A stretch of DNA of 13,815 nt from IMG/VR virus record IMGVR_UViG_2778261151_000008; one strand, written 5' to 3'. Each line of letters opens with the position of its first letter. Within the stretch, counting starts at the first letter, position 1. Position numbers: made by a program. This document shows positions 1-3,000 of the stretch, one piece after another. Source of the stretch: a virus (Duplodnaviria > Heunggongvirae > Uroviricota > Caudoviricetes).

Positions 1-3000
1 TCTGATGGAAATGGAAGCCACGCAAGCACCTTAAAATCACCATCATACACTAAATCAGTAAGTTGGCAGCATTACCCGTTAATCACGATGTCGTCTTTAT
101 TTATCCTGTCATAATAAAAATGCTTCCCGGAAAAAGTTTTAATAAATGACATTTTGTTCTCCGCGTATATGTGCTGCACCACGCTGAATTCTGGTAAAAG
201 GAAGCCCTCACCATCCGGCGATTATTGAGTCAATTACGTTTCCATAAATGCCCCCGCAGGGGCATTTGCAGTAATGAAATCAGGCGGTGAAAGTACCAAT
301 AAAGGTTTCTACTTTGCTGTCTTTGAATTTCTCAACAAGCAGATCACGAAATTCGTTAGCCATTTCTTCCTGCACCGCCTCCATCTGAATAATGCGCAGA
401 ACCAGTACAGGACGATCGCCAGTGATAATGCTGAGGCGTAATTTAAATGGACGTTCTTTCAGACCTTCAAACGGAACGCATTTAAATTCAAATGCCACTG
501 GCATAATATCTTTGGTTTTCGCTTCGACAGATTCCATCAGGGAGCGTTTGCCGCTGAAGTCATTATCTTCAAAATCAGCGGTCTGGTTTGCTTCAATCGT
601 GATTTTACGGACAGCCGCAGCCGCTTTTGTTGCCTGAATAGCGTCACCATTAGCATCAAAGCCCACAAGGTAGTCGGCCCAGTCTTCAATCCATTCTGCC
701 AGTGACTTCTGGGAATGACGCTCGCCATTAACAGACAACAGAGCAGAGAACGGTGCTGTCTTTTTCAGTTTAAGAGTGGCGGTGTTATCTGCGTGACCTG
801 GTTCATCAATAGTACCTAGGTTAAGCACACTGACGGCTCGCATATTATCGGCATCGATAAAGCAGCGGGTGCCTTCATCTGCAAGATCTTTAGAATAACG
901 GGTAAAGTCATCGATGCTGGCAGTGGAAAGCGCACCACGGAAACGGAAGCGATTTAAATTAAATTTTTCCAGATCATGAATGCGGAAATTCTCAGGCAAT
1001 GCCACAGCATCGGCACCAATCTTACTGATAATTTCATTAACACCCTGAGCAGAAATAAGAGCATGGATTTGATTAATTGCGGTTGCGTCTAAGTTCTGAG
1101 ACATAATAAGTCCTCACTATATAAAGATATTCAGTGATGAGATAAATAATCAGTTAATTAAGAACGATATTAATAACCTGCTGCGCGAAGTTTTCCGTCA
1201 GGTTCACCGGCAAGAGTCAGTAATTGTCCCTGGTCTTCCTGCAGAATAGTCAGGCGACCACCGCGATTGACATACATCGGCGTTTCGGTGGTGTCTTCTT
1301 CAGAAATTTTCCCGCGGTTAGTCGGGCGAACATATGAGAGTTTGTGTTTGATTTTCACACGGTTCTCATCAAACGGTTCGATTTCCAGGTTGAGCGAGAC
1401 CTTACCTTTGGTTTTCGTGTTCATCACACCGGAAGCGACTTCACTGAGAACAGCGCCGATTTTGGTTTCAAATACGCCGCCGTCCAGCTCCCCGATAAAT
1501 GCCTGCACATCAGTACTGCGTTCGCTAGCCATTTTGCTGCTCCTCATCATATCGACCCTGCAAGGTCGGTTGGTTTCTCCACAAAACAGAGAAGAACACC
1601 TGCGGTGACTGCCGCCCGGATGAATTGGGTTATGAGCCCGTCGTCCGGTGATGCTCTTCTCTGTTTTGTAAAAAGAGCGGTACCAGCCGGAAGCAAGGGT
1701 ACAAACTGGTACCGCCAAAGCAGTGGCTGTTGTGGTGGGGTTGTCACTCAGGCGTATGGTCAACCTGACAATCCGGTGTCCTCAACGGGGAAAGAGTAAC
1801 CCCGCCATACTTACCGCCGCGCCATTTCGCGGATTACCACAACGCTGAGAGCACTTAGCCAGTTACGGCACCACACTTTGTCGCGGCTCCATAAATGCCC
1901 TCATCGTTGCCCCCTGGTCTCTTCCCAGGCGTCAAACCGAATCGCCACGCTGGTTAGGCGTCTTATCAGCATCATCATTGACTTGCACATTCCGGCTACC
2001 TGGTTTGTTTGCCCGAGCAAGGAGTGGATTGTCCCCTTTAACGTCCCCAGACCGCTAACGACGCATGTGCCATACGCCGTGTTACAACCAAATTTTGTTT
2101 AATCTTGCCTGTGCTGTGTTTCTTTTAGATACATTATGTATCCCAAGGGTACAATGTCAAGTATAAAAAAACCTGCCGAAGCAGGTTATAAATATTGATT
2201 AGGCCTTTATTATGTATCTTCTTGGTTTTCCTGAGAAAATCACTGTACCAATTATAGAGCAATTACCGTTGATCTTAATGTAAGGTTCAGGCCAGTTTGG
2301 GTTTAATGCTTTGAGGTAACGCTGTGTTCCATCTTCTATCAACCGCTTGAAGGTGGTTTCGCCTGTATCGTGCATCAATGCAATAACGTCGTCACCGTGG
2401 CAGGCAGGGACTTCAGGATCAACAAAAATCATGTCTCCCGGGCGGTACTCATCAATCATTGAATCACCAATCACCCGCAAGATATAAGTCATTTCGCCAC
2501 AGGGTACAGGGCAGGGGTAAGTTTCTGCTGTGCTCAAATCAACCTCAGAATAGCCAACTTCTTTCCATGCTCCGGCCTGTACCCATGATATGACAGGGAC
2601 TAACGTTATTTGTTTGTTAGTGATTGAAACATCAGGTTTTTTTGTGATGTTCGTGGTCTGGTGTTCTTGATCAAGCCATCCGACAGGCAGGTCGAAACAT
2701 TTTTCGATGTGCCGCGCCATGCTGTCACCGATATTTTTAGTAGCACCATCTCCCATAAACCTGCTGGTCTGGGTTGGCTCGCGATCAATCATGGTGGCAA
2801 AGGAAGAATTCCCGCCAACACCATCTCTCAGTTTTCTGGCGTTAGACCGCCGGATGTCATGGACTGTTTTCATAAAGAAATTAAAACCTTTGTACCGATA
2901 AGGTACAAGTATCTTGAAGGTTCATCTTAATCATGTAATATGTATACCGGAGGTACATATTGTATGAAAGCGTATTGGGACTCTTTAACCAAAGAACAGC

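Follow-up and report, generated by a model that had tools for sequence, protein, structure and literature searches.

The yfdP–yfdQ gene pair of a Caudoviricetes phage: a predicted early-left module behind a covariation-supported leader RNA

The window, a stretch of 13,815 nucleotides from a virus of the class Caudoviricetes (IMG/VR record IMGVR_UViG_2778261151_000008), carries two adjacent genes between a phage repressor gene and an insertion sequence (Table 1). A first-pass annotation had reported two ORFs of 120 and 274 amino acids at 280–1532, and both were found there on the minus strand. The tentatively suggested identity of their products as YfdP and YfdQ proved correct, being supported by Pfam, PHROGs, RefSeq names and named proteins of 98–99% identity. 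YfdQ matched the Pfam DUF2303 profile over positions 2–269 of 269 (E = 1.2e-92; 310.4 bits against a cut-off of 26.6) and PHROG 210 over 274 of 274 positions (E = 2.4e-120), and the same gene is labelled 'YfdQ family protein' in RefSeq. YfdP matched PHROG 204 (E = 1.4e-49) and was 98% identical to 'protein YfdP [Escherichia coli]'; the PF27127 model was absent from the local Pfam copy, and membership of this family was taken from the PF27127 assignments precomputed for its homologues. The longest mechanical ORF of yfdP extends up to a TTG at 1763. Its start was placed at the ATG at 1532, as in the aligned homologues (M-A/S-x-E-R...), with a GAGGAG Shine-Dalgarno sequence close 5' of this codon.

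Table 1. Features of the yfdP–yfdQ region, with positions counted in the window
Feature	Position	Strand	Remarks
IS1 end interrupting yfdR	1–76		72,056 matches in E. coli genomes, 'IS1 family transposase'
yfdR remnant (HD-domain 5'-deoxynucleotidase)	77–152	-	first 25 codons left, cut by IS1
Hairpin AAAUGCCCC-UGCG-GGGGCAUUU between yfdQ and yfdR	243–270	-	no clear U-run
yfdQ	280–1104	-	274 aa, ATG start; DUF2303, PF10065, PHROG 210
yfdP	1170–1532	-	120 aa, ATG start; first gene 3' of the PL leader; Pfam PF27127 'YfdP', PHROG 204
Untranslated early-left leader	1533–2125	-	mosaic; between PL and yfdP
Structured RNA motif in the yfdP leader	1549–1678	-	about 130 nt; covariation
Terminator-like hairpin (GGCGGUACCAG...CUGGUACCGC), then UCUUUUU	1670–1716	-	U-run and 5' end of the RNA motif overlap
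PL-like sigma-70 promoter, TTGACA-16-CATAAT	2133–2160	-	promoter scan, 11 of 12 consensus positions
Operator-like TTGTACCCTTGGGATACA	2137–2154		inside the PL spacer
Terminator of the repressor gene	2170–2187		terminator scan; PL lies just 3' of it
LexA/S24-type cI-like repressor gene	2199–2873	-	in relatives 'LexA family protein/ymfK' or 'repressor'

Homologues of both proteins number in the hundreds. The YfdQ family comprises 1,832 clusters at 50% identity, and among its best 150 cluster representatives all but a few truncated entries are about 250–300 aa long. Ten polar residues (E46, R56, T61, Y70, H104, Q132, E140, D141, R166 and R223) were at least 90% conserved in 144 representatives of 31–54% identity, and all ten are kept in the YfdQ of the window. 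YfdP, in turn, has a conserved stretch near its C-terminus, TPMYVNRGGxLTILQEDQGQLF. The YfdP–YfdQ block was present, at a query coverage of at least 80%, in 1,175 of 5,426 complete E. coli genomes (about 22%), Stx-converting phages among them. Both proteins are acidic (pI about 5.0–5.5). The GC content of the pair (0.45–0.50, against 0.487 for the window) is ordinary; a low-GC ORF, by contrast, lies at 9712–10137. Judged by this conservation, YfdP and YfdQ are real genes and not chance ORFs. They are already catalogued phage genes whose function is still unassigned, and the earlier description of both as proteins without an assignable function was borne out.

The pair had also been placed downstream of a PL-like promoter and leader, in the manner of lambda N and its early-left neighbours, and this position was confirmed by the promoter itself, an operator-like half-site in its spacer and a leader of 593 nt. 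The PR region (2890–2910) contains this half-site, TTGTACC, again, there as the palindrome TTGTACCGATAAGGTACAA. No convincing or conserved ORF was found within the leader, whose predicted fold has a z-score of -4.25 relative to shuffled sequences. Its mosaic structure was followed in 80 E. coli IMG/VR loci, all 99% identical in YfdQ and hence informative about leader mosaicism rather than diversity: the last 150–205 nt or so accompany yfdP in all 80, whereas leader nucleotides 100–480 occur in only a subset. The promoter scan gave no promoter-like site between PL and yfdP, leaving the operator-bearing PL as the only one upstream. Scoring of 25 related leaders gave a terminator-like hairpin in every one, with folding energies of -12 to -30 kcal/mol and a run of 5–8 U beginning 0–2 nt after it, and the stems vary in sequence between leaders. 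From these elements, yfdP and yfdQ are the first genes of a repressor-controlled early-left operon with predicted transcription from PL. Because only the operator-bearing PL lies upstream, with the terminator-like hairpin in between, expression of yfdPQ in a lysogen is not expected.

The leader segment that directly precedes yfdP contains a previously undescribed RNA motif supported by covariation. In the model, a long helix carries two internal helices (two branch points) and is followed by a small hairpin before the Shine-Dalgarno sequence. RNAalifold returned 41 pairs, 14 of them with compensatory changes; 97.6% of cells were paired, as against 41–56% in slid controls, and 15 pairs had changed on both sides, with the observed values reached in none of 500 shuffles. 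The derived covariance model scored 124 bits in the window and located the motif 5' of yfdP in about 45 loci and also in phage ST64B (101.7 bits). No leader match was obtained with the 4,227 Rfam covariance models at gathering thresholds, and at E ≤ 1 the only Rfam matches in 1100–2300 were sub-threshold hits to STnc370 and mir-9412, neither of which overlaps the motif. It was also considered whether the conserved segment might be a promoter or a small ORF. Both readings were rejected because it contains no promoter-like hexamers and no conserved ORF, while its G-U pairs and strand asymmetry speak for an RNA read in the same sense as yfdP.

The gene pair and its structured leader RNA occupy the same position as lambda N/nutL and HK022 putL, and, like HK022, the window phage has no N-like gene. 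The RNA differs from nutL and putL, however, in being larger (about 130 nt, with the two branch points of the model) and in lying 3' rather than 5' of a terminator-like hairpin; the best score of the covariance model in the HK022 immunity region was 10.8 bits, and no homology to put was detected. YfdP as an analogue of lambda N was likewise considered and rejected. The protein is acidic and folded (pI 5.47, net charge -2.4, with a helix and a three-stranded sheet predicted) and not an arginine-rich disordered peptide, and it is coupled to YfdQ outside the lambdoid phages; it also accompanies YfdQ in phages that do not have the leader motif.

At its other end the operon is truncated. Base 77 is where homology with related prophages sets in, and the translation of the yfdR remnant, MSFIKTFSGKHFYYDRINKDDIVIN, is the N-terminus of the 178-aa YfdR of locus L002. 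The pair had been described as a two-gene operon. The two genes stood, but the extent did not, since in intact relatives the operon runs on as yfdR-yfdS-yfdT-xis-int. At the place equivalent to the hairpin between yfdQ and yfdR, phage Ayreon has an annotated terminator. A YfdR-like gene was found 3' of yfdQ in 57 of 90 diverse loci, and a YfdR match shared the locus of yfdQ in 79 of the 80 E. coli IMG/VR loci. No yfdR-like gene adjoins the pair in about a third of the diverse loci, among them those of the Vibrio, Xanthomonas and Acinetobacter phages that were looked at, and the core function of the pair therefore cannot depend on YfdR.

A survey of the neighbourhood established that the pair travels as a unit. 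YfdP is encoded directly 5' of YfdQ, on the same strand, in 89 of the 90 loci, which also span Vibrio, Xanthomonas, Pseudomonas and Acinetobacter phages; the sole exception is cut off at a contig end. The gap between the genes is 65 nt in the window and, one outlier aside, -35 to +66 nt across the 90 loci. Phage records matched by YfdQ (184) and YfdP (180) had the same genus distribution, and evolutionary distances were more strongly correlated between P and Q (0.79–0.85) than between Q and R (0.60) or between either P or Q and the adjacent repressor (0.15–0.21). In Xylella phage Usme, the partner of YfdQ matched the YfdP profile with 99% probability. Its carriers, in Gammaproteobacteria and in Burkholderia, are temperate phages and at least one phage for which no lysogeny genes are annotated; the record of Xanthomonas phage MET23-P3 holds the pair and no annotated integrase or repressor. 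Three apparent natural P–Q fusions (P0011, P0073 and P0160) were near-identical E. coli deletion variants and were discarded as evidence of domain fusion. Nor was a shared third partner found, the ORFs of about 195 aa located 5' of yfdP in ArgO145 and VvAW1 being unrelated to each other, and ten immediate neighbours gave no useful Pfam match.

Across phages the pair is embedded among genes for SSB, exonuclease, recombinase, HD-phosphohydrolase and nucleotide metabolism. SSB is encoded nearby in VvAW1, 64E30.1, Usme and MET23-P3, and a DnaQ/DEDD exonuclease in VvAW1, 64E30.1, pAN and ST64B (25 of the 90 loci overall); RecT and an exonuclease adjoin the pair in ArgO145, as do a recombinase and an exonuclease in the CP2-like phages. 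In hundreds of phages yfdP and yfdQ occur as an early module, strictly paired and next to genes for DNA handling, so that a lytic-cycle function is more likely than one as prophage defence cargo.

Among the closest known systems is the CPS-53/KpLE1 remnant of E. coli K-12, which has the same genes in the same order (yfdP-yfdQ-yfdR-yfdS-yfdT); the 99% identical block is annotated in RefSeq as yfdQ, yfdP and yfdR. Its control is different. K-12 has lost the immunity region, its yfdP and yfdO are divergent genes, and SrsR binds the yfdPQ operon and activates it, whereas the window keeps repressor, PL and leader but has its yfdR destroyed by IS1. This distinction bears on the proposal of the first-pass annotation that the pair is a host-interaction or defence-related module, possibly for superinfection exclusion or abortive infection. 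A module that protects the lysogen in this way would suit a pair of unassigned function in a repressor-adjacent position, a known hotspot for such genes, and the K-12 remnant does express yfdPQ, with yfdQ influencing the production of phage SW1 (bioRxiv 10.1101/413146; PMC9181523). That expression, however, is seen after the immunity region has been lost and the genes have been captured by SrsR, a regulator of the host (PMC9181523). In the window the genes have no promoter of their own behind PL and are preceded by the conserved terminator-like hairpin, their GC content is typical, unlike that of the low-GC ORF, and neither protein matched a PADLOC-DB 2.0 family at E ≤ 1. Furthermore, the pair extends beyond annotated temperate phages, into a phage without annotated lysogeny genes where it sits among replication and recombination genes. 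An exclusion, abortive-infection or other defence-cargo role in the lysogen was therefore considered highly improbable. The broader notion of a host interaction fared better, having some published support in the inhibition of oriC (PMC4776307).

In that study, multicopy yfdQ and yfdR together with either yfdS or yfdT inhibited initiation at the host oriC, with yfdQ and yfdR each required and yfdP dispensable, and extracts oversupplied with YfdQRST inhibited initiation in vitro (PMC4776307). YfdR binds DnaA through Phe46, in competition with DiaA and DnaB, whereas neither YfdR nor DnaA was bound strongly by YfdQ, YfdS or YfdT; the authors caution that the overexpression phenotype may be artefactual (PMC4776307). 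Given the near-identity of the proteins, the phenotype applies to essentially the YfdQ of the window. A likeness to the inhibitors of DnaA-dependent initiation (lambda P, Bacillus subtilis SirA and Dps) would hold if the yfdQRST phenotype reflects a natural role; like SirA in B. subtilis, YfdR acts on domain I of DnaA, at Phe46, but there is no sequence or fold relationship to any of the three, and YfdQ does not bind DnaA strongly.

The AF2 models reached a pLDDT of 79 for YfdQ and of 82 for YfdP, the latter with three long beta-strands after a long helix, and PDB fold searches with either returned no informative match. Apart from the family itself, nothing was matched when PDB sequences, NCBIfam and PADLOC were searched with profiles. 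One PDB chain, 9o7m_C, is homologous to the YfdQ of the window (E = 1e-44); in this entry 'YfdQ Protein', which shares 98.8% identity with the MET23-P3 protein, is present as 36 chains. The YfdP homologue of the same phage, its major capsid protein and 15 concatenated early proteins matched nothing in 9o7m, which is therefore neither a virion map nor a complex with the neighbours tested. A literature search found no paper citing the identifier 9o7m. YfdQ, an acidic protein of 30 kDa whose fold is unmatched, probably forms a large homo-oligomer, with YfdP as its putative small partner or adaptor.

Such an oligomer might serve recombination or the handling of DNA ends. YfdQ, loaded or capped by YfdP, would then bind ssDNA or ends and work together with the SSB, exonuclease and annealing proteins encoded nearby or, in Chi-rich phages without a Rec system of their own, with host RecBCD/RecA. 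The annealing proteins Red-beta, Erf and RecT form large rings or filaments. A protein of this kind would fit the 36 chains of 9o7m, and genes for SSB, DEDD or lambda-type exonucleases and RecT-like proteins recur as direct neighbours of the pair. The phages LLS, ST64B and phiNP, classed as Chi-rich with 'no Rec module' (PMC12315714), resemble the window in having a repressor, a long leader, yfdP, yfdQ and a yfdR/yfbR-like gene; Chi occurs 14 times in the window, where 0.5 sites are expected, and in its relatives the early-left operon shows no Rec module that can be recognised, a type described in that work as the 'LLS type'. Further support comes from Burkholderia phage JC1, in which the DUF2303 protein gp10 was present in CsCl-purified virions and a DNA association, with a role at DNA ends like that of T4 gp2, was proposed by the authors (PMC9144972), and from the MMS-sensitivity of a yfdQ deletion cited in PMC4776307.

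Clear homology to a recombinase or ssDNA-binding protein, which would have contradicted the first-pass annotation, did not emerge. In sequence and PDB fold searches, neither protein showed similarity to the annealing recombinases (Rad52/Red-beta/Erf, RecT and RecA-like Sak4) or to the RecBCD inhibitors (Gam, Abc2), and no fold similarity to Ku was found. Comparison with Red-beta, Erf and RecT and with T4 gp2 and P1 Dar yields likeness in the SSB/exonuclease neighbourhood, the high-order oligomers and the presence of one family member in virions, but no detectable homology or fold similarity. Moreover, both YfdP and YfdQ are acidic, and ArgO145, JC1 and the CP2-like phages carry complete Rec modules, including genuine RecT-type genes or annotated recombinases, besides the pair; it is because of this coexistence that the authors of PMC12315714, who left yfdP and yfdQ as having 'no known function', doubt a hidden recombinase. 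A recombination or DNA-end accessory role was consequently rated as unlikely. YfdQ as an inhibitor of RecBCD was also considered and found unlikely, the related LLS falling within the class that has 'no Rec module' (no anti-RecBCD gene) and the window being rich in Chi.

It is also conceivable that the oligomer acts against host immunity at the start of infection, as an early and possibly injected factor that sequesters or blocks an immune component and is conserved for this reason. Many known anti-defence proteins are homo-oligomers, and the anti-restriction genes T7 0.3 and lambda ral occupy an early position such as that of yfdP and yfdQ, the pair with which the early-left operon opens. JC1 virions hold the DUF2303 protein alongside a DarB-like anti-restriction protein (PMC9144972), DNA methyltransferase genes lie a few genes 3' of the pair in pAN, H4907 and 1F273_PE002, and the pair occurs in phages of both lifestyles. 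PDB fold searches, however, revealed no similarity to known anti-defence proteins. Anti-defence loci usually turn over rapidly, whereas length and sequence are uniform over the 1,832 YfdQ clusters and the pair keeps its place beside genes for SSB and exonuclease. The experimental phenotype that is available concerns replication initiation and not immunity. On balance, an anti-defence function seems rather improbable.

The reading tentatively preferred here, with low confidence, is that yfdP and yfdQ form a conserved two-protein early lytic module engaged in takeover of host replication or in DNA transactions, as opposed to cargo expressed by the lysogen. The leader terminator and the RNA motif would gate expression of yfdPQ, and it is therefore proposed that the module is made only on read-through from PL. 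During early lytic growth, a YfdPQ complex would then act on DNA-replication transactions. Most likely, it would help YfdR to dampen DnaA-dependent initiation at the host origin, via the DnaA–DiaA–DnaB axis, while the phage starts replicating; alternatively, it may act directly on phage DNA intermediates. A more specific proposal, possible but doubtful, is that YfdP and YfdQ constitute an unrecognised early machine, in which a megadalton homo-oligomer of novel fold and its small partner are gated by a new class of leader RNA in Enterobacterales prophages. This machine would either seize control of replication initiation in the host or protect and process the DNA of the phage, and its regulatory RNA would directly follow an intrinsic terminator at the place of lambda nutL and HK022 putL.

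The yfdP–yfdQ pair is among the commonest function-unknown modules of enterobacterial prophages. Its strict coupling, its predicted lytic-cycle regulation and its occurrence in phages without annotated lysogeny genes direct attention to assays of replication, repair and anti-defence at induction rather than to phage challenge of lysogens. The covariation-supported leader RNA, for its part, may bear on how early-left transcription is controlled in lambdoid phages that have no N.

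The window is a portion of a lambdoid E. coli prophage, and the two early-left ORFs, whose coordinates, sizes and position had been given correctly in the first-pass annotation, were located together with the repressor gene, promoter and leader (see the table). The earlier suggestion of YfdP/YfdQ-like proteins also proved right: the 274-aa protein was identified as full-length DUF2303/YfdQ (Pfam E = 1.2e-92; PHROG 210, E = 2e-120) and the 120-aa protein as YfdP (PHROG 204 match, 98% identity to 'protein YfdP', precomputed PF27127). At the DNA level, the block shares 99% identity with regions annotated yfdQ-yfdP-yfdR-ymfK, and among 5,426 complete E. 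coli genomes, 1,175 cover at least 80% of it. Phages cdtI, Ayreon and 2H10, as well as Stx2c-converting phages, carry it at 97–98% identity, and the proteins of the pair are 98.5–100% identical in SfV, SfIV and mEp460. The YfdQ family comprises 1,832 clusters at 50% identity; among the best 150 of these 1,832 representatives, nearly all are about 250–300 aa long without extra domains. Three E. coli proteins of 166–284 aa (P0011, P0073 and P0160; 95–99% identity) each bear both PF27127 and PF10065, and proteins of this type appear to be yfdP-yfdQ deletion fusions of decaying prophages. No function had been assignable at first reading, in agreement with the 'unknown function' listed for both in PHROGs and with a survey, published in 2025, of the early-left operons of lambdoid phages, in which yfdP and yfdQ 'have no known function' (PMC12315714).

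Examination of the early-left promoter (PL) revealed an operator-like half-site, TTGTACC, in its spacer (2137-2154), and since the divergent rightward promoter (PR) region contains it again, as a perfect palindrome (2890-2910), PL is very probably under repressor control, as judged from sequence. A third copy (TTGTACCCTTG) was seen at about 1693-1703, where the terminator-like hairpin in the leader has its loop. The description of the locus as a two-gene operon turned out to be an artefact of the window. In intact relatives, the order is leader-yfdP-yfdQ-yfdR-yfdS-yfdT-xis-int, beside a tRNA-Thr gene, and here the left arm of the prophage is disrupted by IS1 in yfdR, the IS1 end occupying 1-76 and the remaining first 25 codons of yfdR 77-152. 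Between yfdQ and yfdR lies a GC-rich hairpin (243-270, minus strand) with no clear U-run, at a place matching that of a terminator annotated by phage Ayreon; it may set yfdPQ off as a sub-operon, which agrees with the usage "yfdPQ operon" for K-12.

Features of the early-left region
Feature	Position	Strand	Remarks
yfdQ ORF	280-1104	-	encodes 274 aa
yfdP ORF	1170-1532	-	encodes 120 aa
Untranslated leader	1533-2125		593 nt, PL to yfdP
Structured RNA motif	1549-1678	-	about 130 nt, directly upstream of yfdP; covariation
Terminator-like hairpin and U-run	1670-1716	-	precedes the RNA motif
Strong sigma-70-like promoter (PL)	2160-2133		TTGACA-16-CATAAT; promoter scan
Repressor-gene terminator	2170-2187		
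LexA/S24-type repressor gene	2199-2873		upstream of both ORFs

The fold of the whole leader was more stable than that of shuffled controls (z = -4.25). The leader is a mosaic: in each of the 80 E. coli IMG/VR loci, yfdP comes with the last ~150-205 nt, while the promoter-proximal part varies. Across genera, the yfdP-proximal leader retains 71–92% nucleotide identity, against only about 60–76% identity for the YfdP proteins. An alignment of 25–30 non-identical leaders gave a consensus structure of 40–41 pairs, with compensatory changes in 14–15. Paired cells amounted to 97.6%, compared with 41–56% in controls with the partners slid, and 59 cells were changed on both sides, where the slid controls gave no more than 11; none of 500 shuffles reached the observed pairing values. 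A covariance model scored 112–146 bits on the yfdP-sense strand and 27–41 bits on the antisense strand, and placed the motif just ahead of yfdP in about 45 Enterobacterales loci, including those of Yersinia, Serratia, Rahnella and Providencia, and in phage ST64B. The model did not find the motif beyond Enterobacterales or in phage ArgO145, where yfdP is internal to its operon. In all 25 scored leaders, a stable hairpin of variable sequence stops 0–2 nt ahead of a run of 5–8 U, which forms the 5' edge of the motif; by its sequence, the element resembles an intrinsic terminator. No Rfam family matched the leader motif and, unlike it, the HK022 put region gave no match to the covariance model. 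The motif is therefore read as a putative cis-regulatory element of the early-left leader, which may serve, for example, in read-through control, RNA processing or mRNA stability.

Matching of phage records by tblastn returned 184 for YfdQ and 180 for YfdP, with nearly identical genus distributions that take in Escherichia and Stx phages, Vibrio, Xanthomonas, Salmonella, Shigella, Pseudomonas and Acinetobacter. The arrangement was examined in 90 loci, of which 80 represent distinct bacterial species, nine come from a diverse set of phages and one is an E. coli reference locus. In 89 of them, YfdQ is immediately preceded by a YfdP homologue in the same orientation, the single exception being a sequence that ends at a contig end. 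The gap between the genes ranged from -35 to +66 nt, with one outlier whose copy is probably truncated. Even the partner in Xylella phage Usme, only 34% identical to E. coli YfdP, matched the YfdP profile at 99% probability. Pairwise distances correlated at 0.79–0.85 between YfdP and YfdQ, at 0.60 between YfdQ and the downstream yfdR product, and at 0.15–0.21 between either protein and the adjacent repressor; mosaic breakpoints therefore flank the pair rather than split it, and the pair travels as a unit.

The order repressor, long leader, yfdP, yfdQ characterises a group of loci that are mainly from Enterobacterales. A LexA/S24-type repressor was present in 61/90 loci, a YfdR-like HD phosphohydrolase followed the pair in 57/90, and a DnaQ-type exonuclease lay at most about 2.5 kb away in 25/90, followed by xis and int, as in ST64B; among the E. 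coli IMG/VR loci, a YfdR match occurred in yfdQ's own locus in 79 of 80. In other phages, the pair is located inside a DNA-handling block. VvAW1 has a DEDD exonuclease two genes upstream and an SSB one gene downstream, and 64E30.1 has the order exonuclease-yfdP-yfdQ-SSB. In ArgO145, RecT, an exonuclease and one hypothetical gene precede the pair; in CP2-like Xanthomonas/Xylella phages, it is followed by several hypothetical genes and then a recombinase, an exonuclease and an SSB, and in pAN by a 3'-5' exonuclease, a phosphohydrolase and a DNA methyltransferase. It is unlikely that the pair is an accessory factor for recombination or DNA ends, although the following keeps that explanation alive. 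The window contains 14 Chi sites (GCTGGTGG) where 0.5 were expected (10 on the plus and 4 on the minus strand, spanning 3448-11759, with none in the early-left region), and the phage was therefore assigned to the Chi-rich, 'no Rec module' class of lambdoid phages, which this abundance fits (PMC12315714). Membership of the same class argues against RecBCD inhibition, a candidate role that is considered unlikely.

The AF2 model of YfdQ (pLDDT 79) comprises an N-terminal helix, a linker with a conserved RFRFRG motif and two alpha/beta domains, with residues 173–198 forming an acidic disordered loop. That of YfdP (pLDDT 82) has a 30-residue helix packed against three long beta-strands and a C-terminal segment that is flexible, yet highly conserved. 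Both proteins are acidic by computation. Fold searches of PDB structures with both models, in libraries that did not include 9o7m, gave no informative match. Among YfdQ representatives at 31–54% identity, ten polar residues are at least 90% conserved (E46, R56, T61, Y70, H104, Q132, E140, D141, R166 and R223) and could serve in catalysis, in binding or at an oligomer interface. PDB entry 9o7m holds 36 chains of a 274-residue 'YfdQ Protein' with 98.8% identity to the homologue of Xanthomonas phage MET23-P3, which suggests that this YfdQ homologue forms a large assembly. The chain length equals that of the native ORF, and the source type is a CP2-like Xanthomonas phage (loci L003 and L092). A literature search found no publication on the entry, and searches of it with that phage's YfdP, capsid and other early proteins found none of them.

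Given its early-left position, the pair had been proposed as an exclusion or defence module. Host interaction is plausible, but the defence/exclusion part was not supported. Searches of PADLOC and NCBIfam with both proteins gave no defence or other match; the GC contents of the two genes (0.45 and 0.50) are typical for the window (0.487); and no promoter-like site was found by the scan between PL and yfdP, ahead of which the terminator-like hairpin stands. Nor is the pair restricted to temperate elements: neither integrase nor repressor is annotated in the MET23-P3 record, and the 77–79 kb phages D93 and Mystique carry it too. That yfdPQ is expressed in K-12 is accounted for by the missing immunity region and by control having passed to the host regulator SrsR (PMC9181523). 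A role as a lysogen defence module is thus highly improbable.

Other features of the window were also noted. Rfam matches above the gathering score to isrK (4116-4192, plus strand, 64 bits) and C4 antisense RNA (4217-4304, plus strand, 82 bits) fall inside a 278-aa mechanical ORF (3756-4592), which is therefore probably not a single real gene; the region resembles the RNA-controlled antirepressor region immI of P1/P7, and relatives annotate an 'ash family protein' there. Between the Q-like antiterminator gene (8637-9431) and the lysis genes, a 141-aa ORF (9712-10137, plus strand) has low GC (0.385; GC3 0.29) and a lipoprotein-like N-terminus (MKKVLIAAIGFCLVGCAG), and is a far better moron/lysogenic-conversion candidate than yfdPQ. 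A 350-aa ORF (10715-11767, plus strand), which also follows the antiterminator gene and directly precedes the lysis genes, encodes a product that, from recognised sequence motifs, we take to resemble a DNA methyltransferase.

Previous work demonstrated genetic involvement of yfdQ, with YfdR, in blocking host initiation: multicopy yfdQ and yfdR with either yfdS or yfdT inhibited DnaA-dependent initiation at oriC in vivo and in extracts (PMC4776307). YfdR binds to domain I of DnaA, in competition with DiaA and DnaB; yfdQ was genetically required, YfdQ binding to DnaA or YfdR was not strong, and yfdP was dispensable for the multicopy phenotype. The authors conceded possible overexpression artefacts and suggested that an ancestral phage shut off host replication in a lambda-P-like manner (PMC4776307). 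CsCl-purified virions of Burkholderia phage JC1 contained the DUF2303 protein gp10, for which a DNA-associated role, possibly DNA-end protection, was suggested (PMC9144972); production of phage SW1 rose when YfdQ was made in K-12 (bioRxiv 10.1101/413146). That the pair acts as an early or injected anti-defence factor is considered doubtful. The pair is a strictly paired early module, dependent on a PL that is very probably repressor-controlled. Tentatively, YfdP would be the physical partner of YfdQ, and their complex would act on replication/repair transactions in early lytic growth, its most likely role being takeover of host initiation jointly with YfdR. Both genes are already catalogued as families without known function, to which the strict coupling and wide distribution of the pair, and the leader RNA motif, are useful additions.
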